DNA of 64,000 bases from an uncultured Verrucomicrobiota bacterium (GTDB lineage Bacteria; Verrucomicrobiota; Kiritimatiellia; JAAZAB01). Both the position numbers and the translations under genes were made by a program. The stretch spans positions 11,011 to 75,010 of the forward strand of contig CAZTWL010000009.1 of NCBI GenBank assembly GCA_964617825.1, written 5' to 3'. Below, piece by piece: positions 8,074 through 63,657 of this stretch; position 1 is the first letter of the stretch; each line of letters starts with the position of its first letter. The notes under the pieces are model-generated. The model saw only the letters and a program-made list of their open reading frames with translations, made no database searches and had not been told where the DNA came from.

Positions 8074-8078
8074 ATCGT

Positions 8079-8279
8079 TCAGCTTGATCGCAACTGGGTT
8101 GGATTTTTACCAGTATTCTGCCGGACAAATTTTGCCATGTAATTGGCCGTGTCGAATCCGCATTGAGCCGCGATATCCGCCGCGCCCCATGCCATTTTCT
8201 TTGATGACACGGAAAACATCATTGGTCGCAATATAATCATGGGCAGAAGATTACACAATGAAGAAAAATGCAGCGGCAA
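8079..8279 (-). pseudogene. remnant of an AraC/XylS-family HTH domain (only the second helix-turn-helix retained)
   Basis: The translation ...IAAQCGFDTANYMAKFVRQNTGKNPTQLR matches the AraC signature (GF.s.sYf.r.Fk..tG.tP..yR). There is no sensor domain and no ATG start. Confidence 0.3.
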
Positions 8280-8357
8280 CGGGGCAAAGGGATATGCTTA
8301 TAAGCGGCCGAACATACGGATGTCATCGTATCCATTTCACCAAAACAGGGCGTATGA

Positions 8358-8618
8358 CTTCAAAATGGCTTTCGACCCTCCAAGGAGTTCCACGTCTGGG
8401 CGTTGGAACGGCAAGAGGGCCAATTGGACTGGTACTTAGGCGGACAGAAGCTCCACACCTACATCGGCGAGACACCGCAGGAAAAGATATTTGTTCTGCT
8501 CGGCCTTTATCAAAGCGCATTGCCCGAATGGATCGGACCGACCGATCCCGACCTGCCCTATCCGCGCGATTTCGAGATCGACGATATTCGCGTGTACGAG
8601 CTTCAGCCTCCGGCATAA
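8358..8618 (+). pseudogene. C-terminal remnant of a GH16-type beta-glucanase (laminarinase-like)
   Basis: The frame is open only from 8358. The translation ...SKEFHVWALERQEGQLDWYLGGQKLHTY...FEIDDIRVYE resembles the GH16 C-terminal strands (DDFHTY..EWTPD.I.WYVDG ... VDYVRVYQ). The catalytic N-terminal part is absent. Confidence 0.4.
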
Positions 8619-8654
8619 ACGCGATATCCGCAGCAAACCAGTTAATGGTTGCGC

Positions 8655-18889: not shown

Positions 18890-20018
18890 TCAGGTATGGT
18901 TTGCGGGCTTGCTGCGCCTGAATTTCAAATAGGCTTCGATGAATTTATCCAGATCGCCTTCCAGCACGCCCATGACATTGCCGACTTCCACATCCGTGCG
19001 ATGATCCTTGGCCATGGTATAAGGCTGAAGCACATAGGACCGGATCTGGCGGCCCCAGGCGATTTCGCCCTTCTCGCCGTAGAACTTTTCCATTTCCTGC
19101 CGTTTTTCGTCCTGCATCATTTCATACACCCGCGCGCGCAGGAGTTTCATGGCCTTATTGCGATTGGCGTGCTGCGATCGCTCCGATTGACAGGAAACCA
19201 CGATGCCCGTCGCCAGATGCGTCAGGCGAATGGCCGAATCGGTCTTATTGACATGTTGCCCGCCGGCGCCGCCGGCGCGATAGGTATCCACCCGCAGATC
19301 GGCCTCCGTAATTTCAACCTCAACGTCATCATCCAATTCCGCTACGACATCCAGCGAGGCAAACGAGGTATGCCGCCGTTTATTGGAATCGAAAGGACTG
19401 ATGCGCACCAGGCGGTGGACGCCGCGCTCGGCCGAAAGATAGCCATAGGCATATTCGCCCTCGACCAGCAGCGTCGCGCTCTTCACGCCCGCCTCCTCGC
19501 CGGCGAGCATGTCCAATACCGTCACCTGGAATCCGTGCTTTTCACAATAGCGCCGGTACATGCGCATAAGCATGCCAGCCCAGTCGCAAGCCTCCGTGCC
19601 GCCCGCGCCGGCGTGCAGGTTGATGTAGGCATTATGCCGGTCAAGTTTGCCGTTAAAAAGCGCTTCGATTTCAAGCTTGCGGAAGGCCGCCTCGAATTGC
19701 TCGATTTCAGCGGTAATCTCAACCAGCGCTTGGGCGCGATGCGCGGGATCGGCTTCGGTCTCAGCCAGTTCCACCAGGATACGGACATCGTCCACCCGGC
19801 TGGAAACAGCCTTGAAAGGATTCAGCACGGCACGCAGGGCATTGGCCTGGTCAATCACCGCTTTGGCGGCATTCTGGTCGTTCCAAAAGTCGGGCGCCGC
19901 CATTTTCACTTCGAGTGCGGCCAGCGCGGTTTCACGGTTGGCGACGTCAAAGATAACCCCGCATCTCAGCGAGGCGGGCAACCATGGGCGCAATTTTATC
20001 TTTAAGATCCTCGAGCAT
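18890..20018 (-). CDS. prfB: peptide chain release factor 2, produced by a programmed +1 frameshift
   Basis: ATG 20018 opens a short frame, MLEDLKDKIAPMVARLAEMRGYL, that stops at 19949..19947 inside CTT TGA C. A +1 shift continues into the long frame, which carries the SPF tripeptide and GGQ motifs. Confidence 0.85.
19946..19952 (-). other. RF2 autoregulatory +1 frameshift site CUU UGA C with an upstream SD-like CGGGGU
   Basis: Minus-strand sequence ...ATGCGGGGTTATCTTTGACG... It matches the E. coli prfB site AGGGGGUAUCUUUGAC. Confidence 0.8.
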
Positions 20019-20194
20019 AGTGCTTCCTTTCGGCATTGAATGGCGCCAGAATGCCTAAAAAAGGCATTGAACGCAAGCGGGAATCCGGCAACGGCGGCAA
20101 ACTTTGACCGGTGTTCTAACCATTGAATAACAGGGAATACACTCAGCCAACGCATCCTTGCCCCGCGTTGCGCGTGACCAGGCCATCGTTCGGC

Positions 20195-42906: not shown

Positions 42907-44997
42907 CTATTTGGCGGAACCGGTATATTGCAGGATTAACATGGAGTACTGGTCCAGCCTTTCAAGCCGGAAAGCAATGGAGTTCTTCGCGGTCCGGCAC
43001 GGGACGGGGGATTCTTCCGGCGCAAGCAAAAGCCGCTTGGCACGAATGCCGGTCGGCAGGTTCACTCGCACCTTAATGTCGAAAAGCGGCGCCGGCGGCA
43101 GGTCGGCCGGCAGATTGAGCACGCTGATTATCAACCGCCTTTTATCAGGCTGATCGAAGACCGTGATCTCGGTTGTTGCCGGGGCATTGGTTTCGATTAT
43201 TTTCTTTTTGCCGAGCAGGGAAAGAAAGATCCCGGCCAGAATTTCTCGATGCGCGTCGAAGCCCATGTCTTCAAGTTTCCCGGCGACATAGATCGCTTCG
43301 CCTTTCCCGAATTTGTGCCGGATGGCGGCGGGCGACTTTTCCCAGATCATCGGCGGATTGCTGATCGCCGAGCCGAATCGGACAACCTCTTCCCTGCCCG
43401 AGCAAGGCAATGCCAATGTTCCGAGCACCTCCGCGTCGGGCTCCGCGTCCAAAATAATCTGCGGCCCGTCCAGCATCACCGGATGCGCCCGGGTAAAGAA
43501 ATCATTGAACATTGATTTCTCCGTCGGGCTGATATAGGTCAGAGGGAGCGTCTTGCCTCGGTAATGGATACCGAACATCTCCGCCAACTTGAAATCGCCG
43601 CGGAAACCTTTTTCCGGATCGTAGAGCGAAGTGTGATAGGAAGCGAAAACCTTTCCGCCGTTGCGCACATATTCCGCGAGGGCTTCGCATTCTTCATCCG
43701 CAAGGCGCGAGGCGTCGCTCACGATCAGCAGCGGATACTTGCCCAGGTCCTTGGTTCTGTTCGTGGCAAAAGTGAAAAGCAGATGCTTCCCGGAAAGCGT
43801 TTTGACTATATTGCGGCGCGGCATCCAGTGTTTGGAATCCGCCTCGCTGCGCTTTTCCACCGGCCGCGGACTGTCGATGTCAACCTGCGAATCCGTATTG
43901 AAATAAATCGCCGCATCCGCGAGGGGCACGGAAGATCCGTCAATATATTTCTCGTACTTGCGGTAGGCGGCGTTGATGGAATGCGCATGTTCATAAAACC
44001 GGCGGTCGAGCGTGCCGAAGGGATCGATGGCGTCGATCAGCGTGAAAGACGCCTGGTTCGCCAACGCGGCGTAAGCACGCATTAGCAGGTTGATGTAGCT
44101 GCGCTCCGTGGTGTGATGAAGCAGTGTTTCACACCGCGGAGTCATGAACTCCATCGGGCGGTTTTTGGAAAAGGCGCCGAACATCTTGCACACCGCAGAC
44201 TGCTCAATGCTGTCTCCGGTAAAATCACCCGCCAAAAAGTCGCTGCTTGATAAAAAATCGAGGTTCATGGCGCCGCCCCATCCGACAACAATGCTTGCAG
44301 ACTGCAGCGTCACGGTCCTATCCGGGGTGCGTTTTTTGACTGTTGCGACGATCTTGCGCCCAAATTCCGTCAACCAGCGTTCACGGCAGGATTCATATGC
44401 CAGCCAGCATGGATCGTTCCAGTCGATAAAACGCGGGATTTCGTTGTAGACCGATTCCTTGCGGAACCTTGCCGTGCATTCCGGGCAGTAACAGACCTTG
44501 GAAAACCATCCGATCATATCGATCCACAGCCCAACGCCGTCATAGCGCGAATTCAATTCATCAAGTTCCTGCAGAAACATCTTGCCGAACCCGCGGTTAA
44601 AGCAGCAAAGCCCGAAACGGGTATTTTGATGTTCGCGGTTGCCCGCGCCGTCTTCCAGAATCATGCGCCATTCAGGATGGGCGTCATAGCCGGCGCGACA
44701 CCAGACATTCAGGTAAAGCTGCACGGCAATGCCGGCTTTTTTGCAGGCTTTGATCGTAGCGCCCAGGATATCGCGGCCTTTCAGTTGCTTGTGCGGGAAC
44801 CCGACTTTCGTGGGCCAATAGCACAGCCCCAGGCAGGAACCGGCGTATATTTCCGCCACCGTGATATTGGCCAGCTTCATCATCTCCGCATATCTGGCCG
44901 GGGAAAAATCACGCAGGAGGCGGCCATCCCAGTCGGGAATATGCATATCCACAAGAATCCTGCGGAGATTTTTTTCGAACCACTTTTGGGATGCCAT
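42907..44997 (-). CDS. putative glycoside-hydrolase-like TIM-barrel protein (GH42/GHL6-like) with a C-terminal beta-sandwich region
   Basis: RRILVDMHIPDWD motif. ATG 44997 with an AAGGA upstream. 696 aa. Confidence 0.6.
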   Translation of the reverse strand: MASQKWFEKNLRRILVDMHIPDWDGRLLRDFSPARYAEMMKLANITVAEIYAGSCLGLCYWPTKVGFPHKQLKGRDILGATIKACKKAGIAVQLYLNVWCRAGYDAHPEWRMILEDGAGNREHQNTRFGLCCFNRGFGKMFLQELDELNSRYDGVGLWIDMIGWFSKVCYCPECTARFRKESVYNEIPRFIDWNDPCWLAYESCRERWLTEFGRKIVATVKKRTPDRTVTLQSASIVVGWGGAMNLDFLSSSDFLAGDFTGDSIEQSAVCKMFGAFSKNRPMEFMTPRCETLLHHTTERSYINLLMRAYAALANQASFTLIDAIDPFGTLDRRFYEHAHSINAAYRKYEKYIDGSSVPLADAAIYFNTDSQVDIDSPRPVEKRSEADSKHWMPRRNIVKTLSGKHLLFTFATNRTKDLGKYPLLIVSDASRLADEECEALAEYVRNGGKVFASYHTSLYDPEKGFRGDFKLAEMFGIHYRGKTLPLTYISPTEKSMFNDFFTRAHPVMLDGPQIILDAEPDAEVLGTLALPCSGREEVVRFGSAISNPPMIWEKSPAAIRHKFGKGEAIYVAGKLEDMGFDAHREILAGIFLSLLGKKKIIETNAPATTEITVFDQPDKRRLIISVLNLPADLPPAPLFDIKVRVNLPTGIRAKRLLLAPEESPVPCRTAKNSIAFRLERLDQYSMLILQYTGSAK

Positions 44998-45164
44998 TTT
45001 TTTATCGTCCTTTGGCAAGGATCCCGAAAAACTCAAATCGACGACCGCGCGCTTTTTCCCGCAATACGCGGCCGCCGCCCCTGGAAGGCGCCAGGTTTTG
45101 AATAGCCAAAGTTTTGCCTGCTCTATCGGCGGAATTTGATTGTTGAGGGACAGCCGCCGGCCGG

Positions 45165-45872
45165 TTAGCCGGCATCCTTATTTTCCGGCGGAACTGCCGT
45201 CTGGATGGAAGACTCCACCCGCCGCACTTCCGCCAGGATGGTCTCCGCCGGGCTGCGCTGGGCAATCATGGCTTTAAAATTGCTCTGGCGCAGGACAAAG
45301 GAAAGGCGCGCGAGCATATGCAAATGGATGCGTGGCGCCGAACTGACCAGCGTAAAAAGCGCGAAAACCGGCTGACCATCCAAAGCCCCGAAATCCACTG
45401 GCTTCGCCAGCAGGCACAAAGTCACCTGCGGCTGGGTAACGCGCAGGACGATTGGATTGCGCGGATGCGGAATGGCAATGCCGTCGCCAACCGCGGTCGA
45501 GGCCAAGGCCTCGCGGGCCAGGAGCATCCGATACAACAATTCGCGATCCACATCCTCCGGCAAGTGCAAAAGGTCGACAATCGCGCGCAGGACGGTGGGT
45601 TTATCGACGCCGCCGACATCGTGGAAAATGCCGCCCAACGCAAGTGCCTCCGAAAAAGACGGCAGGTGTTCATGCTCTTCGTTTTCATCGTAAAACAGGG
45701 ACGGCGGAACTTTCAGCTTATGACCCGTCGCCCACTCCAGCAGTTCCGCGCGATTGAAGCGAAATTGGTTGCCAATCCGGCTGGCCGGCAAATTGTCATG
45801 CTTTACCCACCGCAACACCGTTTTTTCAGAAACGTTCAAACGCTCCGCCACATCACGTACAGACCATTGCAT
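45165..45872 (-). CDS. one-component regulator: excisionase/MerR-type HTH fused to a PTS EIIA(Ntr/Fru, type 2) domain
   Basis: The HTH is WSVRDVAERLNVSEKTVLRWVKHDNLPASRIG. The EIIA-2 domain carries the phosphorylatable His in GDGIAIPH. ATG 45872 has a CAGGAG upstream. Confidence 0.75.
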   Translation of the reverse strand: MQWSVRDVAERLNVSEKTVLRWVKHDNLPASRIGNQFRFNRAELLEWATGHKLKVPPSLFYDENEEHEHLPSFSEALALGGIFHDVGGVDKPTVLRAIVDLLHLPEDVDRELLYRMLLAREALASTAVGDGIAIPHPRNPIVLRVTQPQVTLCLLAKPVDFGALDGQPVFALFTLVSSAPRIHLHMLARLSFVLRQSNFKAMIAQRSPAETILAEVRRVESSIQTAVPPENKDAG

Positions 45873-46234
45873 AATATGCTTGCTCCTGACTATTGATCGC
45901 TTGCGCATTGCAAGCCGGTCGCCATTCCGAATCGGGCTGATTATCCCGTTTGAATTGGCATGACCAATATGAACTAAAAACCTGTAAAATCAACACTAAT
46001 CCAAGCCGGGCACAAGCGCGCTCCAAACCCAACCCGGTTTGATGCAAATTGGGCCCCGTCGTGGAAAGACGGATCCCATTCGCCGTATATCAGCGGCGGG
46101 TTTTCAAAAAATATTAGCGCAAATTCACGGCTAAATTTCCGAATGGATTGAAAATCGCCGCATTTATCTCCAGATCGATGTTTATCCGCCGCAAAGCTCG
46201 TTTTTGCATTGTCAGTCGCAGGTTCTGGCCGGGA

Positions 46235-52012: not shown

Positions 52013-53269
52013 ATGATGAGCAGAAAAGCAATCAAAACATCGACACCCCACGCCGACCGGATCCTCCAAGGTCTGCGCCGCTCCTGCCTATGCCGACTGG
52101 CCGCATTCCTCATACCCATGGCTCTCTTTTGCACCTCCGGACAAAGCGCAATTGCGACAGCGGAAGCGGCCGATGAAATCGCCGGCGAGTTGTTGCCCTC
52201 TGACAATTACAAGCATGCGGAGTGTTGGCTTAAACACATGAGCGGCTATGCCGGCCCATTTACGGGCGCCAATCCGTCAACCTCGAAAATCTGCGACGCC
52301 ATCCGCGCTCTGTCCGCCCAGTACAAAGTACCGATCGAAATTATCGGCGCCGTTTGTTTCCAGGAAAGCAGTCTATACCAGTACGGCGCAGATGGGTTTA
52401 TTGTCCATAATCTGGGCGAATGCATATCGTTGTATTATGGCGCCTCTGGCGGTCCGCCGGGACTGGGACTCATGCAGCTGACCGGGACAACGGCCACCAG
52501 CACATTCGATGTGAATCGGCTTATTACGGACTGGCGTTATAACCTGGAAGCGGGGGTCTACGTGTTAAGACATGAATATGACACCTCTTTGGCTTACTAC
52601 CCGCCGGAGATGCAAACCATAACGATTGCAAATTGGAATGTGCTGGAGAATTGGCGTTACGCACTGGCGCGTTACAATAGCTACCAAGATCCGGAGAACC
52701 CCTACGTAGCCGCCGTGTGCAGGCATATCGCCTCCCCTCCCGCGCAACTATCGGGCCTTTTTACCGGAGCGACACTGACCGAGCCGCAAGACGTCATACC
52801 GGAGTTCATCTATGGGAATGGTTATGCCGTCAAGCCTGAGGGCGTCTGGCTATATGCTAATGGCATTGCGTATTACGGGACCGCGCATACCGGAACGATT
52901 GCCGCCAATCCGACAATCAAAGCCAATGGCGTGGAAGGCCAAATTGCCGTCAATTATCCCGCCCCGCTATCCATCACCGTGGCAATGAATGCCGGCGATT
53001 ATGCCGGCCTGAAGGGCGACTGGTGGGTCGTCGCTTGTGCCGGATATACATGGTATTACATGGATGGCGTGAACGGGTGGACGCAGGAGGGCGCTTGGCG
53101 TCCGGCATTCCAAGGCGGATTTTGCAATCTACCCACCACGGAAGTGCTGAACGTATCTAATTTGGGAAAAGGTTCGTATACCTTCTATTTTGCGGTTGAT
53201 TTTATTATGGATGGCATTTTGAACATGGATGCAATTTTATTTAATTCGGTGAATGTCATCGTGCAGTAA
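52013..53269 (+). CDS. secreted lytic-transglycosylase (SLT) domain protein with a C-terminal domain shared with the protease paralog at 14497
   Basis: SLT motifs FQESSLYQY and GLMQL. The last ~108 aa (YPAPLSITVAMNAGDYAG..DWWVV...VIVQ) match the C-terminus of the 14497..15927 protein. Confidence 0.7.
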   Translation: MMSRKAIKTSTPHADRILQGLRRSCLCRLAAFLIPMALFCTSGQSAIATAEAADEIAGELLPSDNYKHAECWLKHMSGYAGPFTGANPSTSKICDAIRALSAQYKVPIEIIGAVCFQESSLYQYGADGFIVHNLGECISLYYGASGGPPGLGLMQLTGTTATSTFDVNRLITDWRYNLEAGVYVLRHEYDTSLAYYPPEMQTITIANWNVLENWRYALARYNSYQDPENPYVAAVCRHIASPPAQLSGLFTGATLTEPQDVIPEFIYGNGYAVKPEGVWLYANGIAYYGTAHTGTIAANPTIKANGVEGQIAVNYPAPLSITVAMNAGDYAGLKGDWWVVACAGYTWYYMDGVNGWTQEGAWRPAFQGGFCNLPTTEVLNVSNLGKGSYTFYFAVDFIMDGILNMDAILFNSVNVIVQ

Positions 53270-53547
53270 GATCGCATGCATCACGCCGGGCCACCGCCAA
53301 AAGGCCAAGACACCATACGCTGGACCTGAGATGAAGTCTGACGGCAGACGGCGGATCGGATCGAGGTGTATATGGAGTGAAAGCCAGTAAAACTCTCTGG
53401 GCTACAGCGAGCGAGACCAAGGCTTAGTCCGTTACGGCCACACACAAGCCTTATTCTTTATTCGAAGGGCTAAGTCCCGTTCCCCACATGAAGAATTTGA
53501 ATGTTATTTCATGCCTTGAACTAATGCGCAAATTAACGGGAGACAAC

Positions 53548-55998
53548 ATGATGACTAGGCTGATGTCAGGGTTTGTGTTGGCAAGTATAATGGTTTTATG
53601 CATTCCGGCCAGAGGTTTTGATGTGGTCAAAGACGGCAGTCCGCAATGTTCCATCGTGCTGTCGCCCAGAGCCAGCCCAAGCGAGAGGCTTGCGGCCGAG
53701 GAGTTGGCGGCCTATGTGAAAAAGATGTCCGGGGCAACGTTGCCGGCGATGGCCGAAAACACGAAAAACGGCATTATCATCGGTACGCTGGGAAGTCTGA
53801 CGAATATTCCTGTAACAGCCAGGGAACGGCTGAAAGCCTGCAATTCCGACGAGGCCTTCTATATCCGGAGCGAGGGCGATAATCTCTTTATCATCGGCAA
53901 GCAACCGATCGGCGCTTTGTATGGCACGTATACCTTGCTGGAGGACTATATGGGCGTACGCTGGTTTTATCCGGGCGAATTGGGGGAATACTGCCCTGCG
54001 ATAAAAACGATGGCATTGCCGATAATCGATGATTTCCAAAAACCCGCCATGGCCACCCGGACAGGGCTCCCCAATGCACCCTACGATAGCGCAATCTGGT
54101 GTGCCCGGCAGAAAATTCAACTGATGAATGTCGTTCCCACCTCAAAATGGTTTGATGGAAAAGCCTGCGCGAAAGAGCGGTCTGAGTTTCTTAATCAAGC
54201 GCTCAACACGCATGCCATGCAGGGAGGACATCCGACTTTCATAATGGCCGTGCCCGACGCGTTGTTTAAGGAGCATCCCGAATATTTCGTGCTGAGAGAC
54301 GGCGAACGCAAGCTCGGCGGACACGCAGGGGGTTTCCAACGGTGCGTATCCAATCCTGACGTGTTCAAGCTGGTGGCCGAGTACATTCTGAAATGGTGCA
54401 ATGAAAACCCGGACAACGTATTTTTAATTTGTTCCGCCGACAATAAGGATGGATGGTGCCAGTGCGAGGAATGCAAAAAAATGGGGACGGTTGACGGAAC
54501 ATACAAGAACACCAACCTGTTTCACCGATTTTTTTCCAATGTCCTTGGCTATGTTCTGGAACGCAATCCCGATGCGCGGGTTGATGTCAGGTTCTATGTC
54601 GACCGGGGCATCGCCCCCGATGACAAGACCATCCAGTACAGGGGGAAAAATGTGCGCGGCGTTTATTGCACGTGTTGGCCACACACACGCTGCTATGCGC
54701 ATAATTTCACTGACCCGAACTGCGCGTTCAATAGAAAATGCCTGGAGGACTTGAAGGGTGTGCTGAAGATATGCCCTCGTATTTACACGTATGAATATAT
54801 CGAGACTTCCGATGTTCCCTACGCTCCCTTGGATAAAACCCTGGCGCAGGACATCAAGGACCTGGCAGCGATACAGGTCGAGGGGTTCATGAACTCTACG
54901 CATGCCCCGAACTCCAAGGCCGCCCACCGCCCCGCTGCGCCGTATGTTTGGCAAGCCCGATGGGCTTCAATTTATCTCACATCCAAACTGCATTGGAACA
55001 CCAAGCTGGATCCGGAAAAGATCATGGACGATGCCTACGATAAATATTACGGCAAGGCGGCGCCGGCTATGAAAAAGTACCAGGCGTTGCGCATGAAATT
55101 ATGGGAAAGCGCCCCCGGGCATGCCTTCTATGGCGGCCCAAAACGCACGGCCTATTGCCTGACGGTTCCAGGAGCGGAGGAGGAGCTGCGGTCGGATCTT
55201 GCCGCAGCCAAAAAGCTGGCTGGGGATGACATGCTGGTTCTTGCGCGTATCGATCTGGATGAGAAGTTCCTGAACATGTTCTGGAAGGCGCCCGCCGAGG
55301 AACTGAAGAAAAGGCATTCCGCGGAAATGCAGATTCTTCCCGAGCGCGTTCGCGGAGCCATCGTCATCGACGGCGATTTGTCGGAGGAAACCTGGCTGTC
55401 TGCCCGCCCGGTAACAGGGTTTCTTAAAGTGCATACCGACCAACCGCCCTCGGAGGACAGCAATTTCCGCGTGGCCTATGATGATGCCAACCTGTATATC
55501 GGCTTCGTGGCGATGAACAACAAGGCATGGAGCCCCGAGACCGCCAAGGCACAGAAGCGCGACGCCGGGGAACTGGGCCAGGATGACCACATCCAACTGC
55601 AGTTCGCCCCGCCCGACAACGGCGACCGTTTTTACCATATCATCCTCAACACCAAGGGCGTGCTCTATGACTCGACAATCGTTGGGCAGGACAGTGACCT
55701 GAGTTATGATTCTCAGGCCGAGGTCAAGGTCAAAAAGCTCGCTGACCGTTTCGTTTATGAGATCCGCCTGCCTTTGGCGCCGATGAAGGGAGATGTGTCG
55801 CCGGGAAAAGTCTGGGGAATGTATGCCTTTCGAAGAAGCAAGAACCTTCAGCCGCCCGAGGACAAGGAGGATAGTGCGCTGGACGGGATCACGCCTCACC
55901 GGGTGATGGAGTTCAGGCAGGCCGTTTTCGGCGAGAATGTTGTCAAAAACGGCAATTTTGCCGACCGCGACGAAAAAAAAAAGAAAACCGGGGAATAA
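53548..55998 (+). CDS. secreted DUF4838-like glycoside-hydrolase-family protein with a CBM9-like domain
   Basis: Signal peptide. The N-terminal layout is typical of DUF4838 hydrolases. A CBM9-like block ETWLSARPVTGF...YDDANLYIGF is present. ATG 53548. Confidence 0.7.
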   Translation: MMTRLMSGFVLASIMVLCIPARGFDVVKDGSPQCSIVLSPRASPSERLAAEELAAYVKKMSGATLPAMAENTKNGIIIGTLGSLTNIPVTARERLKACNSDEAFYIRSEGDNLFIIGKQPIGALYGTYTLLEDYMGVRWFYPGELGEYCPAIKTMALPIIDDFQKPAMATRTGLPNAPYDSAIWCARQKIQLMNVVPTSKWFDGKACAKERSEFLNQALNTHAMQGGHPTFIMAVPDALFKEHPEYFVLRDGERKLGGHAGGFQRCVSNPDVFKLVAEYILKWCNENPDNVFLICSADNKDGWCQCEECKKMGTVDGTYKNTNLFHRFFSNVLGYVLERNPDARVDVRFYVDRGIAPDDKTIQYRGKNVRGVYCTCWPHTRCYAHNFTDPNCAFNRKCLEDLKGVLKICPRIYTYEYIETSDVPYAPLDKTLAQDIKDLAAIQVEGFMNSTHAPNSKAAHRPAAPYVWQARWASIYLTSKLHWNTKLDPEKIMDDAYDKYYGKAAPAMKKYQALRMKLWESAPGHAFYGGPKRTAYCLTVPGAEEELRSDLAAAKKLAGDDMLVLARIDLDEKFLNMFWKAPAEELKKRHSAEMQILPERVRGAIVIDGDLSEETWLSARPVTGFLKVHTDQPPSEDSNFRVAYDDANLYIGFVAMNNKAWSPETAKAQKRDAGELGQDDHIQLQFAPPDNGDRFYHIILNTKGVLYDSTIVGQDSDLSYDSQAEVKVKKLADRFVYEIRLPLAPMKGDVSPGKVWGMYAFRRSKNLQPPEDKEDSALDGITPHRVMEFRQAVFGENVVKNGNFADRDEKKKKTGE

Positions 55999-56022
55999 CC
56001 AACGGCCCAGCCCTCCGGTATT
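55977..56022 (+). other. candidate -1 programmed frameshift cassette: in-phase slippery heptamer A_AAA_AAG (55977-55983) plus a downstream stem (ACCGGGG / CCCTCCGGT)
   Basis: The heptamer is identical to the E. coli dnaX site. It is phased with the 53548 reading frame, and the -1 frame stays open for 145 codons. The A-run 55973-55982 could alternatively reflect a homopolymer indel. Confidence 0.3.
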
Positions 56023-56048
56023 GGAACGTTAACGCGCAAGAATGTGAA

Positions 56049-56417
56049 GTGCTCGAAGAATGTTCTCAGCCTTCCCGGTTGAGGCTTAAGAACGGTTTGA
56101 TTTACACCTTTCTCAGCATTCCTGCAGAGAATCAAAGCCGGACATTAGTCGGCGAGATTCATGCCTCCGGTTCTGGTAAACTCTCGATCCGGATTAGCAG
56201 CTGCTTGAGGCCGCCCGACAGCAAGGAAAAGGCGTTTTCGCATTCAATTAAAAAAGAAATCGGCCCTTTTGTGCTGACCCCGGAACCATTGCGGCTAAAG
56301 TTCGCAGTCGATATCGACCCTTATGAACAGGGATACCTTTATGTTCGTGTAGACGGCGAGGCCTTCATCAACCACATCAGCGGAGTGCTCGTCGAAAAAC
56401 AAAAAAAACGGGTTTAA
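56049..56417 (+). CDS. open -1-frame continuation of the gene at 53548..55998 (beta-sandwich-like 122+ aa); it has no ribosome-binding site of its own
   Basis: The frame is continuous back through the A-run. Its only start is GTG, with no Shine-Dalgarno. The composition matches the upstream gene. Confidence 0.35.
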   Translation: MLEECSQPSRLRLKNGLIYTFLSIPAENQSRTLVGEIHASGSGKLSIRISSCLRPPDSKEKAFSHSIKKEIGPFVLTPEPLRLKFAVDIDPYEQGYLYVRVDGEAFINHISGVLVEKQKKRV

Positions 56418-56556
56418 AGAAAACAACAATTTGCCTGGACGTGAAGTCGCCTGTGCAAATCAAGATTTCTGATCGTTGCTTTCCCGTGTTGTGAAAATTG
56501 AGAAGACGTTGCGGTCCCCCACGCGAATAAATTGCTCTTTTTTCAAAAGAGCAAAC

Positions 56557-58329
56557 TTACCGGAATCGGGCTGTCAGCTCACCCAGTGCGCTTTGATACA
56601 CGTCCCGGGGGGAGATGTTTTGCGCATGGCAGATGGAAGCTGCAGTGCCCACGACCTCGCCCATCATTCCGCATGTGCGCATGACACGAACCGGCCCTAA
56701 TGCGTCGTGAGTCACGCTGATACATCGGCCACCCATGAAGAGATTGCCGATACGCCGCGAATACAGGCATCGGTAGGGCATGAAATAGGGCGGGTTGAAA
56801 CACTCCTTCCCGTCGCTACAGATAAAAGCGTCGCCTTCGGCGTAAGCCGGGTAGTATTTGCGGTTGGGTGTGTGCAGATCAAGCCCCCATACGATGCCGA
56901 CGATGCCGTCATCGTATGGGATCGACTGCAACAGATCCTGCTTTGTCAAAACGAGGTCACCCAGCAGACGGCGGGATTCCCGTTTGCCCGAAATATGCGC
57001 AGAATATGCGATCTTGTATTGTTGAAAATCGCGATCGATATTTTTCATGGCATCCCACGCGCCGTACATGGCGCGGAAATTCGTGTCGCGGGCGTATTCC
57101 GCCTTTTGAATGGGGTGATGCTCAAAGCCCGCGCCCCAGTACCAGCAGCCGATATTTCGTGCAGCCTTCTTTTCGCCGTCCGGATTCGTGCCGCCCGCCC
57201 GCAGCCGTTCGGGGAACTCGGGTTCGGTCAGATCGATTGCCCACGGACAGCGAGGGAAGGATGTGTTCGCGCCGGTATCCTCGATTGCCCAGAAGTTGGA
57301 TAGCTCCATATGTCCGGAAGTCGTCATTTCGTAGTCCGCTCCGCTTAAATATCCCAGTGTGCCGTCGCCCGTGCAGTCCGCGAACAGCGGCGCGGCAATT
57401 CGGAGGCTGCGGCAAGAGCGGATATCCATCAGTGTCACGCTGCGGATAATGCCGCCGTCGACTTCCGCGCCGGTCACGGCAAAGCCTGTATATAAGGTGA
57501 GATTCGTTTCGCTTTGGAGGATGCGTAATTTGGCGTTGTCTTTGTAATTTTCCGCGCGGTTGGCAATCCCAAAAATATCCCGTGCCTGCTGCTCAAACTC
57601 CTGAGTAACCAAGCCCAGCTTCGAAAACGGCGCCAAGCAGAGTTTGCCGCTGAGCCAAACACGCACCTCGGAACTGTTGTTGCCTCCGTAGACTGGACGA
57701 TCATGCACGAGCGCCGTTTTCAGACCGGCGCGGGATGCGGTGACGGCGCAGGCCATCCCGGTAATGCCGCCGCCCGCAACGATCAGGTCATAAGTGCCTG
57801 TGATAGTCTGGGTTTCATCCAGCCCGTTAGCGGTACGCAGTGCTGCTAACACCGAAGGATCGCTGTCCGGTATGAAATCCAAATTGCGCGTCAGTAAAAT
57901 GCCGCCACAGCGTCCTTCAAAGCCCGTCAGATCATGCAGCGCGATCTCCGCGTCGCCCGCCATAAGCGATAAAACACCGCCGTCCTGCCAGTGCCAATCC
58001 GCGCCGTTCTCTCCGAATACAGGCTCGCAAAAACGTCCGTTGATGCGCAGGCGAAACACGCCCGGGGCGTACGCGGGCTTCCAGGGTGCGACCCAGTTGC
58101 GCGTGTATACCCATATGCGGTATTGTGCGGGCTTCTGTATCCGGATTCGGGTAGCTGCGTCGGCCACCGGAGTGCCCAGTCCGTGGGCCAGAAGATAGGG
58201 TGTGCCGCATGTGTCAATGAATTGGGAGTCGTTGAGCCATCCGCCTGTATCCTCGAACGCGGTCGGTGCAAGGTATATCCCGGTAGTATCGTTCATGTCC
58301 GTCATTGTCCTCTCGTATTTATAAACCAA
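56557..58329 (-). CDS. FAD-dependent oxidoreductase (PF12831-like, typical of CAZyme loci)
   Basis: FAD-binding motif DLIVAGGGITGMACA near residue 165. 590 aa. Confidence 0.8.
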   Translation of the reverse strand: MVYKYERTMTDMNDTTGIYLAPTAFEDTGGWLNDSQFIDTCGTPYLLAHGLGTPVADAATRIRIQKPAQYRIWVYTRNWVAPWKPAYAPGVFRLRINGRFCEPVFGENGADWHWQDGGVLSLMAGDAEIALHDLTGFEGRCGGILLTRNLDFIPDSDPSVLAALRTANGLDETQTITGTYDLIVAGGGITGMACAVTASRAGLKTALVHDRPVYGGNNSSEVRVWLSGKLCLAPFSKLGLVTQEFEQQARDIFGIANRAENYKDNAKLRILQSETNLTLYTGFAVTGAEVDGGIIRSVTLMDIRSCRSLRIAAPLFADCTGDGTLGYLSGADYEMTTSGHMELSNFWAIEDTGANTSFPRCPWAIDLTEPEFPERLRAGGTNPDGEKKAARNIGCWYWGAGFEHHPIQKAEYARDTNFRAMYGAWDAMKNIDRDFQQYKIAYSAHISGKRESRRLLGDLVLTKQDLLQSIPYDDGIVGIVWGLDLHTPNRKYYPAYAEGDAFICSDGKECFNPPYFMPYRCLYSRRIGNLFMGGRCISVTHDALGPVRVMRTCGMMGEVVGTAASICHAQNISPRDVYQSALGELTARFR

Positions 58330-58810
58330 TATATGTTCGTTGAATGGTCGTTCCTAATTGGTAAGCAATCGCTTGCCATCCGATAGGATCTCGTGTCCGT
58401 TAGAATCTTCCAAACAAGCGTGTTCATGTCGGGAAGACTGCCACATGCGGGAGGAAGCGTAAAGTCAGGAGTTGCCATCAGTTGAAGAAGTTGAAGCGTA
58501 GGCGGGTACAATCAATACCTGCCTTAGAAGGCGGTGCATCCGTTCCCGACGGAATGATGTCCCGCAACACACTCGCGGACACTCACACTGGTGGCGCACA
58601 GTAGAACGCGATACGCGCAGGCTGACGCCCAACGTTACCTACCTGACAGCAGGCACAGGGAACGATAACGTTTCGTTGCGCACCTCTTCGGCAATGCAGC
58701 AAGGCGCATCCGGTAATGCCAAAGGCTCCTGCAAATCGATTCGTGATTATGCGCCGGCACCTTTACCCTATTAAGGATTATTTGCTATTTTCAGACCTGG
58801 CATCGGACAT

Positions 58811-60994
58811 TCAATCGATGATTTTGGCATTTCTGAATGCAGCCATCAGTTTATTCTTATTTATTTTGCTGGTTTTTAAATATCGACGGTTCCCGACGGG
58901 TAATATTGCGCCAGCTCCTTTTTGGCCATCAAGAACCTGACCTTTCTGTCCCAAACTCTCCAACAATATTAAATCCCTGGATTTAAAGGGAAGTTCAAGC
59001 TTTTTATTGGCGGATATGTGCCAGTACACCACATAAAGATCGTGATGCCTTTCGAAGGTAAAAGCGATCACTTCCTTGCTCCCATTGGCAACATTCGTGA
59101 TCCGATCATAGGGAACTAATTCGAATTTATTCTTTTCGTTCAGTAAAAGGGTATACTCCTGATCGGCATCGCGCAGCATTTGTTTCTGTTTATCAGTCAG
59201 CCATTTCTTGGCCCTGACTTCTTCCCAGCGCCTGAAGACCTCGAAATTATCGGCGGTTCTCGGGTGCTGCGCCAAGATTGCAGGATCAGCATGGATCGCA
59301 ACCGGACAATCCCATGCCGCGGCCTTGCTGGTTACAAACTCCAACTGGTCCGGTTGCGTTCCGATGGTTTTTTCGCCTGGGATCCAGTAACCTAACCAGC
59401 CGAAATTAAGGCGGGTGAAATTATCCCGCATCCTGGGCGCTTCCCTAAAGGGATGATTGATCGTTTCTGCCTTGAGCTTTTCGGGCGGGAAAACATCGAA
59501 CGCATTGCCGCCTGTCAGCATATGCCAACCGAAATGGGTTTTTGCCGCTCCCTCTGCGAAGATCGGTTCCGGTTTAAGTTTGCTGAACACACGGTACTGT
59601 GCGCCGGACACATGATACCAGAAAGGAGGATTAACGCCTTCCGATCCGTCAAAATAGAAAAACTCAAATCCCGCATCCCAGAGATCGGCAATTCCGTCGG
59701 CCACTTCATCCTGGAGGTCCGAATATTGATCGATATAAACGCTCGTTGCGCCAAATTCACTTACGTCCAGCAATCCGAACATGAAACCGGCAGGCTGGGC
59801 GCCTATTGTTGTTCCGTCGATGCCACGCTCGCAGCCGAAAAACGTATAGGGCGGCGTAGCGGTGTAACCGCGATACGAAATTAACTCCGTTCCTATTTTC
59901 AACACCATCCTGTTCCGGGCCATCGTCGAGTTTCCAGGATTTTGCTCGACATGAATTGTGGTGTCATTCTTTTCGAGAGGCTCAGCCAGGGTAAATATCC
60001 GCAAGAGATTCAGCCGGTGATCGGGTGTTGGGGTAACATACTTGCTATCCCTCCCAATGTGACTATGGAGAAAATGGCAACCGGGCGTAATGCCGGCGTT
60101 TTTAATTTTGGCCAGCATCGCTTTCAGATCGGCTTTGCCGTTCGGATATTCCCGACGGTAGCCATCGTAATTTCCGATGAGCCGGTAACCCCGGCTTTCG
60201 AGAAAAGCCGGATAATAAATGTTCATGAGCCTGAATCCGCCCATCTTGGCATATTTTATATGTTCATCGACATTGGTCGGATTAACAGCGGCTGTCCAGT
60301 AATATGACGCATTGTATAGCGCATGTCTGCGGCTGGCCACGCCATGGGGCAATTTATAATCTTTTTCAACGGCGGCGATCTTGTCCAGCAGTTTGTCCGT
60401 TGCACAAGTTATTAACGCCGCGGTAACTCCCGTAAGTTTGATCTTCTCATCCACGCCGGCCTGCAAGATCCGGTAGCCCTCGCCTTCTTCCGAATCGGCA
60501 TTTGCGCACGGTTCTGCCGCAAGTACATTAACGGCCACCTTGTCATTCCACATCACATTCAACCAGTCGCCCCAATGGCCAAGGTTGCGGACGGGCAATC
60601 GCAGGAACCACATTTCGGATATGGGAGGCTCAGTCATGGCAATGCCATAATCCTCGGTCAGCGTGAATGCCTCCAAAGTAAATGCGATATAATCCGCAGT
60701 AATCTTCAGGCCGACGGTGGCTTCCCACGGAATCAGTTCATAGCCGATAATCAACTTGTCCCCTTCCCGGCGGACCGCATTGGACTTGAACGTGGTCTTT
60801 TTATTGGGATATGCCAGTTTAACCTCGTTCTGGTAGGGACGCGGCTCGGTTATGGAACTGAGGGGAACATTCTTCCGCTGTATTAAACATTCGGTATTGG
60901 TTGGCTTAAACAGCAAACTTTTGACAATCCCACCGCTGGTAATGACCAGTTTGGTCTGTTTATTCTCAATGATTACATCTTTCATCCTGCTCAT
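58811..60994 (-). CDS. large uncharacterised putative glycoside-hydrolase-like protein; low-GC paralog of the gene at 2543..5365
   Basis: ATG 60994 with a GGAG 8 nt upstream. Blocks VTPTPDHRLN..FTLAEPL and WDAGFEFFYFDGSEG are shared with the 2543 gene. GC is visibly lower (~47-50%). Confidence 0.7.
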   Translation of the reverse strand: MSRMKDVIIENKQTKLVITSGGIVKSLLFKPTNTECLIQRKNVPLSSITEPRPYQNEVKLAYPNKKTTFKSNAVRREGDKLIIGYELIPWEATVGLKITADYIAFTLEAFTLTEDYGIAMTEPPISEMWFLRLPVRNLGHWGDWLNVMWNDKVAVNVLAAEPCANADSEEGEGYRILQAGVDEKIKLTGVTAALITCATDKLLDKIAAVEKDYKLPHGVASRRHALYNASYYWTAAVNPTNVDEHIKYAKMGGFRLMNIYYPAFLESRGYRLIGNYDGYRREYPNGKADLKAMLAKIKNAGITPGCHFLHSHIGRDSKYVTPTPDHRLNLLRIFTLAEPLEKNDTTIHVEQNPGNSTMARNRMVLKIGTELISYRGYTATPPYTFFGCERGIDGTTIGAQPAGFMFGLLDVSEFGATSVYIDQYSDLQDEVADGIADLWDAGFEFFYFDGSEGVNPPFWYHVSGAQYRVFSKLKPEPIFAEGAAKTHFGWHMLTGGNAFDVFPPEKLKAETINHPFREAPRMRDNFTRLNFGWLGYWIPGEKTIGTQPDQLEFVTSKAAAWDCPVAIHADPAILAQHPRTADNFEVFRRWEEVRAKKWLTDKQKQMLRDADQEYTLLLNEKNKFELVPYDRITNVANGSKEVIAFTFERHHDLYVVYWHISANKKLELPFKSRDLILLESLGQKGQVLDGQKGAGAILPVGNRRYLKTSKINKNKLMAAFRNAKIID

Positions 60995-61311
60995 GGTTAG
61001 CTCCGGAATAAAAAAGCATTTGCAAAACAACGGCGCTTTGTTCCCGCCGTCACCGGCGCGGCTAACAAGCGCTGACTTTTCCTGGCATCGAATGCCGGGA
61101 GAAGGCACCGGTCGAGCCGAAGGCGATTTGCAACAACGCCAGCATTTCCTAATCTTCAGCGCTCAGTGACGCACCTAAATCCCATCGACCGTCACCGCCT
61201 GCCTTACGCAATAACATTGTGACGGAATGTAACAAGGTGCGCCAGAAAACGCCAGCGCAAAACCGATGGCAAACGGCAATGAGGGTTGGTCGCCAAGGGA
61301 ATAGCGCACCC

Positions 61312-63657
61312 CTATCCTATCCGGCAAGTCGCCTCAGGAAAGTTTTTGGAAACTGCCTTGAGGGTTATGCCTTCCGGCCGATTCACCTTCAGGACAAAGG
61401 AGGCGATTCCGACTTCGAAACAACGCTCCGTATCGCCAATTATCACGGCATTTTCGCCGCAGGCGGCAAGCGCGACTTTTGTCGTGTTGTCGGTCACCGG
61501 CGTGCCGTTCCGGTCAACAAGGGCAACATCGACAAAAACAACATCGTTCCGGCAGAGCGGCACGCCTTCATCCCTGACGGTTATCGCCAGGCGGACAGGT
61601 GTTCCCGGCGTGTGGATCACATGTTCGGCAGCCTTTTTTCCGCCAATGTAACCGACAGCCTTGAGTTCGCCTTTCTCCTCCGGCAGGTTGGTAAAGGTAT
61701 AGGGAGGATGCGGCAGATATTCGCAATTGCCGCCATCGTGGGTATCGATTTTCATACCATCGAGCTCCCACGGACGCAGGACGGTCTCCCAATTCGGATT
61801 GCCGGTCGTGTGATAGGAGGTGAGCTTGCCGTTATCCGGCCCGCGGCGCTTAATGAGCCTGCCGTTCAGGAAAAGCTCGATCTCGTCGCAGTTCGAGAAG
61901 ATAACGACCTTGTTCAGGATCTCCTCGCGCCGGGAGGCGATATAAACCATCGGCTCTTTGCCGTTCTGGCTCTGGAAAAAATAATATTTATATTTTGGAA
62001 CGCGGAAAAGCGATCCGTCGCCGCATTCGCATTGATTGGCGCGGAAGCCATTGTTGTAATCAAACATGCACCAGGTGCAACCGCCGATATAGCCGGGCTC
62101 GGTCGACATCTTGTTGAGGGACCACTGATAATTCCAAGCCTGACGGAGCAGTTCGTACTCCCCATCCCGACGCGAACGGCGCGAAGTGCTCTTGCCGCCG
62201 CCGAATGCCCAGTCGCCATATTCGCGGACGATCACCGCCTTGGTCTTGCAATCGAGCTTGGTGCGATTGAAGAGCACGTCCCAGCCCTCGTAGAGTCCAT
62301 AAACGTCGCCGCAGGTAAAGCATTGGTCCCCGGGATATTCGCGGTGGGCAATCCTGTGCATTTCCTCCGGCAGCCACGCGGGCGGATAGGTCTCGTTCAG
62401 GGATACTTCCCAGAGAATGATGCTCGGGCGGTTGCGTTCGTTGCGGATGAGTTCGCGACAGTCGCGGTAGACGTTGTTGATGAAGGTGGAGTTATTGCTG
62501 AAATGCTGCCAGCCGGGCACAGGCGCCATGATGCAGAGGCCGAGTTCGTCGCAGGCATCGAGAAGAGCCGGATGCTGGGTGTAATGCGCCAGACGTATGA
62601 GGTTATACCCGGCCCTTTTCATGATCATTGCGTCGCGCCGCTGCATCGCAGCGGGCGCCGCGTTACCAAGGTGGGGATAGTCCTGGTGATGGTTGGTGCC
62701 TTGGATATAAAGTTTTTCGCCGTTGATTTCGATCCCGTTTTCACGGGTAATACGGACCCGACGGATGCCATAGCGGAAAGTCTGCGACTCAACCTCGTGC
62801 TCGCCGTCGAAAAGGGTCACTTTAACCCGGTACAGGCTGGGGTGATCCGGATGCCATAGCTTCGGTGCGGGTACGTTGATCTCGCAGGCATAGGTCTGGT
62901 CACAATTCGGACGGATGCTTGTTCTGTACTCAAGGGGCGTTATCGCTGCGGTCCCATCCGGGGCAAACAGTTCTATTCTGAGTTGTACCGGATAGATTTT
63001 ATCGGCTTTCTGCGGCAGATTCCAGATCTCTTCACCCAGCACCTGGCGCAGGATATGCACCTGGCAGCCGAGTGTTGCGCTCTGGGCGCCGATCGCAAGC
63101 GTCCGCATAAAGATGCCGCCCCCGGCTTCAACATTAACCTCGAGCGGATCGGTGATATGGAGCTTCTCCTTGATCGTGAGGCGCGCCGACCGGTAGATGC
63201 CGCTGTAATAGCAAAAGTCAACGGATTCAAGCGGATTTCCCGGAGGCATGTCGTCCGTCGGCCGATTATCCAGGCGCAAGGCGATGATATTGGTCTCGCC
63301 GATCTCAAGTTTCTGGGTTAACGGAACGATAAAACGCTGGTAGCCGCCCTGGTGCGTGAAAAAATAACGGCCGTTCAGATATATTTCCGTTTTCTGCATG
63401 GCGCCATCGAGTTCGAGCCATACGATCTTGTCGGCCCACTCTTTTTCGGCAAAAACCGGGAGGCGGTACCAGCAACAGCCCTGCCAATGGTTTTGGGCAT
63501 TGCAGGTCTCGGGCTCGATATGCGCGCAATGGGGAAGGTTAATGCGTTCCCAGGAAGTGTCGTCCAATGTCGGCGACGCGGCAATTTCGGGGCGCAAGTC
63601 TTCGAATTTGAAATGCCAGCCGGCATCAAGAGTGTCTAGATCGATCTGCTTGAACAT
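61312..63657 (-). CDS. glycoside hydrolase family 2 (beta-galactosidase / beta-mannosidase-like)
   Basis: GH2 sugar-binding, Ig-like and TIM-barrel order. Motifs NLIRLAHYTQHP and ILWEVSLNE (acid/base region) are present. 781 aa. Confidence 0.85.
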   Translation of the reverse strand: MFKQIDLDTLDAGWHFKFEDLRPEIAASPTLDDTSWERINLPHCAHIEPETCNAQNHWQGCCWYRLPVFAEKEWADKIVWLELDGAMQKTEIYLNGRYFFTHQGGYQRFIVPLTQKLEIGETNIIALRLDNRPTDDMPPGNPLESVDFCYYSGIYRSARLTIKEKLHITDPLEVNVEAGGGIFMRTLAIGAQSATLGCQVHILRQVLGEEIWNLPQKADKIYPVQLRIELFAPDGTAAITPLEYRTSIRPNCDQTYACEINVPAPKLWHPDHPSLYRVKVTLFDGEHEVESQTFRYGIRRVRITRENGIEINGEKLYIQGTNHHQDYPHLGNAAPAAMQRRDAMIMKRAGYNLIRLAHYTQHPALLDACDELGLCIMAPVPGWQHFSNNSTFINNVYRDCRELIRNERNRPSIILWEVSLNETYPPAWLPEEMHRIAHREYPGDQCFTCGDVYGLYEGWDVLFNRTKLDCKTKAVIVREYGDWAFGGGKSTSRRSRRDGEYELLRQAWNYQWSLNKMSTEPGYIGGCTWCMFDYNNGFRANQCECGDGSLFRVPKYKYYFFQSQNGKEPMVYIASRREEILNKVVIFSNCDEIELFLNGRLIKRRGPDNGKLTSYHTTGNPNWETVLRPWELDGMKIDTHDGGNCEYLPHPPYTFTNLPEEKGELKAVGYIGGKKAAEHVIHTPGTPVRLAITVRDEGVPLCRNDVVFVDVALVDRNGTPVTDNTTKVALAACGENAVIIGDTERCFEVGIASFVLKVNRPEGITLKAVSKNFPEATCRIG

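Follow-up and report, generated by a model that had tools for sequence, protein, structure and literature searches.

Organization of the locus

Near the right end of a 64,000-nucleotide stretch of contig CAZTWL010000009.1 (the whole stretch is called the window below) lies gene A, which encodes a glycosidase-like protein. It is the middle one of three co-directional minus-strand genes, which run from a glycosidase gene of the GH2 type through a 317-nt spacer, gene A and a 514-nt spacer to a gene for a flavin adenine dinucleotide (FAD)-dependent oxidoreductase (Table 1). A distant paralog, gene B, is located at the other end of the window. In this study, we argue that gene A is a xenolog from a Bacteroidota lineage that was inserted as a single gene into a Kiritimatiellia chromosome, and we put the probability of this reading at about 80%. 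Horizontal acquisition of the low-GC copy (GC, guanine plus cytosine content) had been proposed in an earlier note on this DNA, and finds strong support in the composition of gene A, in a tree in which it is nested in Bacteroidota, in the absence of shared synteny and in the identity of the host as indicated by UvrB.

The open reading frame (ORF) of gene A and its start (ATG at 60994, stop at 58811) agree with the gene product recorded at NCBI from a contig of 118,817 bp, whose sequence is exactly that of the 727-aa protein. A GGAG Shine-Dalgarno-like motif stands 6 nt ahead of the ATG, in the 317-nt spacer (GC 0.55), which is the true 5' region of the gene.

The closest homologs of the UvrB encoded in the window are 86-89% identical to it, and the named ones are labelled Kiritimatiellia/Kiritimatiellae or Verrucomicrobia. 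Of the 120 matches listed, which reach down to 67% identity, all that are named belong to the Planctomycetes-Verrucomicrobia-Chlamydiae (PVC) group by their labels, and none to Bacteroidota. These affinities identify the host as a member of the Kiritimatiellia. Besides uvrB, the housekeeping genes nadA, prfB, gmk, proB, proA and dapF are found in the window among genes of the carbohydrate-active enzyme (CAZyme) kind.

Table 1. Gene A, its surroundings and gene B, with positions in the window
Feature	Position	Strand	Description
Gene A	58811..60994	minus	727-aa glycosidase-like protein without signal peptide; probable low-GC xenolog
Spacer 3' of gene A (the 'leader' of the earlier note)	58297..58810	minus	514 nt, non-coding; 5' of the FAD-dependent oxidoreductase gene
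Spacer 5' of gene A	60995..61311	minus	317 nt, from GH2 stop to gene A start
FAD-dependent oxidoreductase	56557..58296	minus	PF12831, Pfam E 2e-60; start at 58296
GH2 glycosidase	61312..63657	minus	Pfam GH2 N, middle and TIM domains
DUF4838 / GH67N-like / CBM9-like protein	53488..55998	plus	Pfam assignment
Gene B	2543..5365	plus	940-aa distant paralog of gene A; resident by expectation; GC host-like to high

Gene A forms a single-gene low-GC island

Composition was scored over 39 genes of the window, which have a mean GC of 0.576 (standard deviation 0.027) and a mean GC at third codon positions (GC3) of 0.683 (standard deviation 0.044). With a GC of 0.491 (z -3.2) and a GC3 of 0.560 (z -2.8), gene A is the lowest of the 39 and the clearest outlier; its GC1 is 0.52 and its GC2 0.40. 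None of 289 segments of the same length (2,184 bp) taken elsewhere reaches so low a GC, the minimum being 0.520, and the tetranucleotide distance of gene A exceeds that of all 289. When GC is followed in 300-nt windows, the low-GC island is gene A itself, at about 58650..61050. Gene B has a GC of 0.619 and a GC3 of 0.760. The contrast between the two copies that the earlier note had pointed out is real, but its figures of 48% and 65% were overstated and should be 49% and 62%.

Gene A is nested among Bacteroidota homologs

We found 120 listed homologs of gene A at 69-88% identity, which carry the labels Bacteroidales/Rikenellaceae/Prolixibacteraceae, Victivallales/Lentisphaeria, Kiritimatiellae, Verrucomicrobiota, Omnitrophota, Latescibacterota and Gemmatimonadetes. 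The identity to Bacteroidales proteins, 84-85%, is higher than that of the host UvrB to most of its relatives from the same phylum. The closest listed homolog, P0002, is 88% identical in amino acids and 85% in nucleotides, and its neighbours, an AraC regulator and a major facilitator superfamily (MFS) transporter, differ from those in the window.

In a neighbour-joining tree with 200 bootstrap replicates and gene B as the outgroup, gene A falls within a clade rooted in Bacteroidota (bootstrap 94.5). The basal branches of this clade are, in succession, Bacteroidales and Prolixibacteraceae (bootstrap 87.5 and 91), and its sister group consists of Bacteroidota as well (Petrimonas, Proteiniphilum, Mariniphaga, Bacteroidaceae). 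The other homologs from Kiritimatiellia and from Lentisphaeraceae stand in separate clades and are only about 52% and 41-45% identical to gene A. A phylogeny of the paralog family, which had been suggested as a check, thus contradicts vertical descent of both copies.

The polarity of the transfer is suggested by comparing the GC of each gene of the gene A type (A-type) with that of its flanks. In the Bacteroidota loci the two are equal, at about 0.41 each. In PVC-type hosts the gene lies 8-10 points below its flanks: 0.491 against 0.572 in the window, 0.550 against 0.655 and 0.563 against 0.652 in two Victivallales loci (L002 and L005), 0.424 against 0.516 in a Kiritimatiellae locus (L004), and 0.444 against 0.538 in locus L074. 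In our reading, the most likely source of gene A is a Bacteroidales lineage.

The neighbours that gene A has in the window were not found beside its orthologs in 72 genome loci or on the contig of P0002. Since there are no common neighbours and the low-GC island matches gene A in extent, the unit that moved would be a single gene, and horizontal transfer of gene A alone appears well supported by these sequence comparisons. Relatives of the FAD-dependent oxidoreductase on metagenome contigs are 47-52% identical over their full length, with 59% over one 74-residue fragment, and none of them adjoins an A-type gene. The neighbouring GH2 gene matches the NCBIfam beta-galactosidase GalA-like model below its curated cut-off.

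Another copy in the same class may represent an independent event. The Kiritimatiellae locus L004, on a 414,876-bp contig of a metagenome-assembled genome (MAG; JAQUPZ010000005.1), carries at L004:5920-8172 an A-type gene that is 80% identical to gene A. This gene, too, stands out sharply as a single-gene island, its GC being 0.40-0.46 where the flanks have 0.50-0.59, and a sulfatase gene and the gene of a BNR protein adjoin it. It retains a lipoprotein signal of the Bacteroidales type with a lipobox (MKRSFTLLITLASILIISC), and the whole suggests a second, separate and more recent transfer.

Several observations weigh against our reading. The dinucleotide relative abundance (delta*) of gene A is ordinary, 118 of the 289 segments being at least as deviant. 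The tree was built by neighbour joining only, with bootstrap values of 70 for the group of proteins that have no signal peptide and of 61 for the sister relationship. The taxon labels are derived from MAGs, among which there could be mis-binned contigs. P0002, the nearest relative, is itself a low-GC island in a host of 0.54 GC. A tRNA scan detected no tRNA in the window, no significant repeats flank gene A, and no mobility genes were seen among the Pfam-scanned neighbours (window, L001, L004, L020, L022) or among the called genes of L074. Moreover, the insertion itself is inferred from the comparisons given above. Three ORFs of L005 scanned against Pfam gave no match, and a plasmid search returned only two distant matches of 23-24% identity.

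The signal peptide of the Bacteroidota orthologs is missing from gene A

Bacteroidota orthologs of gene A are about 750 aa long, and most of those inspected open with a lipoprotein signal such as MKRLLLLLMTLTSFFIISC, in which the lipobox cysteine ends an ...ISC or ...SSC signal. The forms of about 728 aa, which comprise gene A, P0002 and proteins labelled Victivallales, Lentisphaerales, Omnitrophota and Gemmatimonadetes, open directly at a conserved MxxxxDVxIEN; the N-terminus of the gene A protein is MSRMKDVIIEN. Neither a lipoprotein signal nor a lipobox cysteine was found in gene A, and the in-frame sequences upstream of the signal-less forms are not signal-like. The signal-less forms group together with modest bootstrap support (70). 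Since a signal peptide is missing, the gene A protein is predicted to be cytoplasmic, and in this it differs from the surface or periplasmic lipoprotein glycosidases that are encoded in the polysaccharide utilization loci of Bacteroidota and carry an N-terminal lipoprotein signal.

To explain these patterns, we suggest that the gene A lineage arose among Bacteroidota as a lipoprotein with a signal peptide; the copy in Petrimonas adjoins a SusD-family gene. A signal-peptide-less derivative would then have spread to anaerobes outside Bacteroidota, namely Victivallales/Lentisphaeria, Omnitrophota, MAGs labelled Gemmatimonadota and Kiritimatiellia. One copy would have been inserted between the resident GH2 and FAD-dependent oxidoreductase genes of the Kiritimatiellia chromosome, where its GC3 appears to have been only partly ameliorated: its value of 0.56 stands between those of Bacteroidales (about 0.38) and of the host (about 0.68). 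Oligosaccharides taken up into the cytoplasm are the probable substrates of the protein. The neighbours of the P0002 gene, which encode an MFS sugar transporter and an AraC regulator, fit a role in the processing of sugars after their import.

Inter-phylum transfer of CAZyme genes out of Bacteroidota is a well-documented kind of event. Like the known cases, the present one concerns a single gene moved between co-resident polysaccharide degraders and is seen through a GC deficit and a tree nested in the donor phylum. It differs from them in its recipients, which are Kiritimatiellia, other PVC-type lineages, Omnitrophota and lineages labelled Gemmatimonadota, and in that the signal peptide was lost and no mobile-element vehicle is visible. 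In the literature searched, we found nothing relevant on a CAZyme transfer into Kiritimatiellia, which are poorly studied polysaccharide degraders. The case is an ordinary though clean CAZyme gene transfer, from a Bacteroidota lineage to Kiritimatiellia with loss of a lipoprotein signal peptide, and reveals neither a novel type of genetic element nor a novel regulatory mechanism.

Alternative explanations for the origin of gene A

It had also been proposed that an entire CAZyme block, consisting of the DUF4838/CBM9, FAD-dependent oxidoreductase, gene A and GH2 genes, was acquired as one foreign island at a right end of the window that drifts to lower GC. Such a drift exists, with gene means of 0.589 at 1-42 kb, 0.562 at 42-52 kb and about 0.55 at 52-64 kb when gene A is left aside, but it is small, and the sharp drop is limited to gene A. 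A foreign block would account for the rightward fall of the gene GC means (0.589, 0.562 and 0.539) and for the somewhat low values of the DUF4838 gene (GC 0.535, GC3 0.654, z -0.7) and of the gene at 52013..53269 (GC3 0.606, z -1.7), both of which are only mildly low; all the genes concerned are, moreover, carbohydrate-related. However, both direct flanks of gene A are host-like in composition (GC 0.578, GC3 0.666, z -0.4 for the FAD-dependent oxidoreductase; GC 0.558, GC3 0.685, z +0.1 for GH2), the GC drop begins and ends at gene A in 300-nt windows, the orientations within the block are mixed, and these neighbours are not seen with A orthologs in the 72 other loci. Composition lends no support to acquisition of the block, which we consider very unlikely.

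The abruptness of the GC shift at the borders of gene A and the metagenomic origin of the contig would fit a fragment from Bacteroidales that had been chimerically joined into a Kiritimatiellia contig during assembly or binning. Gene A is not a Bacteroidales allele, since its GC3 of 0.56 is far above the 0.36-0.39 of the Bacteroidales orthologs and it does not have their signal peptide. Furthermore, a separately assembled Logan contig (L073) contains the end of the GH2 gene, the spacer, gene A and the other spacer, with 100% identity over both junctions, so a chimeric join is extremely unlikely. Vertical descent of both copies would require that the low GC of gene A came from its amino-acid composition, from low expression or from a local mutation bias. 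Part of the deficit does lie at the protein level, as GC1 and GC2 are also low, and the unremarkable delta* and the lack of mobility genes nearby are in keeping with such an origin. It is, nevertheless, extremely unlikely given that identity to gene A amounts to 84-85% for Bacteroidales proteins and to only 41-52% for the other homologs from Kiritimatiellia, that gene A is nested in the Bacteroidota clade without synteny, and that the deficit relative to the flanks recurs in four other PVC-type contigs.

Predicted fold and possible function of the gene A protein

No Pfam match (E<=1) was found for any A-type sequence, gene A and gene B have no match in Pfam or NCBIfam, and sequence and profile searches of the PDB gave nothing significant (best profile match E 0.27). 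In the literature searched, we found nothing relevant on a characterised family for the two proteins.

An AlphaFold2 model of the gene A protein was built on an alignment of 55 A-type and B-type (gene B type) sequences, with a mean confidence score (pLDDT) of 86.5 and a predicted template modelling (TM) score, pTM, of 0.85. In the model, an N-terminal beta-sandwich (residues ~1-198) is followed by an alpha/beta barrel (~199-610), which is interrupted by a beta-rich insertion of roughly 110 residues (~310-420), and by a C-terminal beta-sandwich. The predicted architecture is thus that of GH36, GH31 and GH101 enzymes, in which a (beta/alpha)8 barrel has beta-sandwich domains on either side. Foldseek matched the model to GH101 and GH36 structures (E 1e-16 to 1e-14), with GH31 also among the fold matches. 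Against a closer assignment stand the identity of these matches, about 10%, and their TM-scores of 0.35-0.41, so that enzyme class, substrate and catalytic residues are putative only. The protein would resemble in fold the clan GH-D type glycosidases (GH36 alpha-galactosidases and GH31 alpha-glucosidases/xylosidases) and GH101/GH129, and differ from all of these in its sequence, which is about 10% identical and finds no Pfam, NCBIfam or PDB sequence match, and in the predicted insertion into its barrel. The term 'putative glycosidase' in the earlier note holds at the level of the fold and does not extend to membership of a named family by sequence: as modelled, the protein is glycosidase-like and not a demonstrable member of GH36, GH31 or GH101.

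In the alignment of 55 sequences, 46 columns are invariant, including H307, E370, D449, E481, D500, E552 and E591 in the numbering of gene A. In the model, D449 ends the strand 445-449 and E481 is on the strand 479-482. The two are 32 residues apart, which equals the spacing of D764 and E796, the two residues mutated in the matched GH101 entries. Because of their invariance, their position on barrel strands and this spacing, D449 and E481 are a plausible candidate pair of nucleophile and acid/base, and a retaining-glycosidase mechanism via Asp449 and Glu481 is likely if the model is correct.

What the substrate may be is hinted at by the company that A-type genes keep. In Petrimonas (L020) they occur with a SusD-family gene and two GHL6/GH42M proteins, and in Mariniphaga (L022) with RhaA, MFS, a GFO/IDH/MocA oxidoreductase, a 3-keto-disaccharide hydrolase, a B-type gene and an FGE-sulfatase. 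These neighbours, with those in L004, give hints of complex glycans.

Proteins with GHL6 and Glyco_hydro_42M domains were noted at several places. One is encoded in the window at 42907..45036 on the minus strand, 14 kb from gene A. In Petrimonas sulfuriphila, two (L020:3935-5887 and L020:10530-12569) flank tandem A-type genes beside the SusD-family gene. The gene upstream in L001 has a Glyco_hydro_42M match only. It may be that A-type genes and such proteins are in a recurrent functional association.

Gene B and the paralog family

Genes A and B are homologous, as had been noted, with 27% identity over 477 aa (BLASTP, E 1e-27). The window contains no further member of the family, and two copies do not by themselves show it to be 'expanded' as it had been described; an exhaustive phmmer search collected 1,244 clusters at 50% identity (E<=1e-3).

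The best homolog of gene B, at 80% identity, comes from a MAG labelled Verrucomicrobia in which, just as here, NadA and UvrB are encoded close by. The next ones are about 50-53% identical and spread over many phyla, with labels including Verrucomicrobia, Planctomycetes, Armatimonadota, Chloroflexi, Latescibacterota and Lentisphaerae. Such a distribution is what a resident gene should show, and gene B would be a vertically inherited, distant paralog of gene A. Members of its family are hypothetical proteins of about 940 aa with a core homologous to gene A and the same invariant residues. Gene B differs from gene A in that its product has about 300 additional aa at the C-terminus, and in its host-like composition and neighbourhood. 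Weak matches to CBM_11 (23 of the 55 aligned sequences) and to the 'xylose isomerase-like TIM barrel' AP_endonuc_2 (22 of 55) all fall in the B family, and none in A-type sequences. A few listed B-type proteins are longer, at 1,235-1,462 aa, with extra domains.

In Bacteroidaceae (L021:8376-10046) and Mariniphaga (L022:7747-10689), a B-type gene is located directly downstream of an A-type gene; these two B-type genes are 37-40% identical to gene B of the window. Proteins of both lineages may thus share a substrate.

It is conceivable that A and B together represent an uncurated and uncharacterised glycoside hydrolase family with a GH36/GH31/GH101-like fold and the candidate pair Asp449/Glu481, of which one Bacteroidota lipoprotein lineage repeatedly crossed phyla, losing its signal peptide, into Kiritimatiellia, Lentisphaeria, Omnitrophota and Gemmatimonadota-labelled genomes. 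We regard this broader proposal as tentative and somewhat short of probable. If true, the family would point to a glycan substrate that matters ecologically in anoxic sediments and digesters. A sizeable family with a confidently predicted glycosidase-like fold that is not covered by Pfam, NCBIfam or the PDB deserves consideration in the search for new enzymes.

The spacers around gene A

The earlier note had described a 480-nt leader that precedes gene A and could hold a regulatory RNA or a riboregulator. The region is 514 nt long, and since gene A is read from the minus strand and ends at 58811, it lies downstream of the gene; it is not the leader of gene A and cannot control it from there. 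The gap is indeed long: in the ORF-based gene list of the window, only one gap that lacks an ORF of at least 80 aa exceeds it. This longest gap, of 581 nt (8074..8654), extends from the start of uvrB (8073, minus strand) to the stop of nadA (8655, minus strand).

The 514-nt spacer has a GC of 0.51 and no ORF longer than 74 aa, and a 69-aa ORF at 58302..58511 has no Pfam match. As the spacer is located 5' of the FAD-dependent oxidoreductase gene and in the same direction, we considered that it encodes a cis-regulatory RNA or a small RNA controlling this downstream gene. Its length among the ORF-free gaps of the window and the poor cataloguing of regulatory RNAs in PVC bacteria speak for this possibility. 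Covariance models of Rfam 15, however, gave no match in 58200..58900 even at E<=10, nor any in the whole window, the 8074..8654 gap included, at the gathering threshold. The minimum free energy of the spacer (-160.9 kcal/mol) is close to that of shuffled sequences (-159.3 +/- 6.3; z -0.25), 38 of 100 shuffles being at least as stable, and promoter-, terminator- and antiterminator-like motifs show no excess. The spacer has no notable repeats. When both spacers were compared by blastn and tblastx with 83 fetched loci of other contigs, Logan contig L073 and the window, the only match was the identical L073, with no pseudogene remnant, conserved element or homologous spacer among the fetched loci. 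A regulatory RNA at this place is thus unlikely, and the 514-nt spacer would be ordinary intergenic DNA that presumably holds the transcription end of gene A and the promoter and 5' untranslated region of the oxidoreductase gene. It may also contain material from the insertion junction.

Other observations in the window

The convergent gap between the DUF4838 and FAD-dependent oxidoreductase genes (55999..56556) is low in GC (0.45-0.50). It contains an ORF of 122 aa on the plus strand (56049..56417; GC 0.488, GC3 0.553) that has no Pfam match. The gap represents non-coding DNA or else another small patch of low GC. The 418-aa ORFs at 385..1641 and 52013..53269 were compared as a possible duplication and are unrelated.

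At 45165..45908 on the minus strand, a fusion of HTH_17 and PTS_EIIA_2 domains, probably a regulator, is encoded beside GHL6 and DUF4832 glycosidase-like genes. The peptide chain release factor gene (PCRF and RF-1 domains) occupies 18890..20155 on the minus strand, with a longest ORF of 421 aa, in which the PCRF domain begins at residue 77; translation probably starts downstream of the first codon of this ORF.

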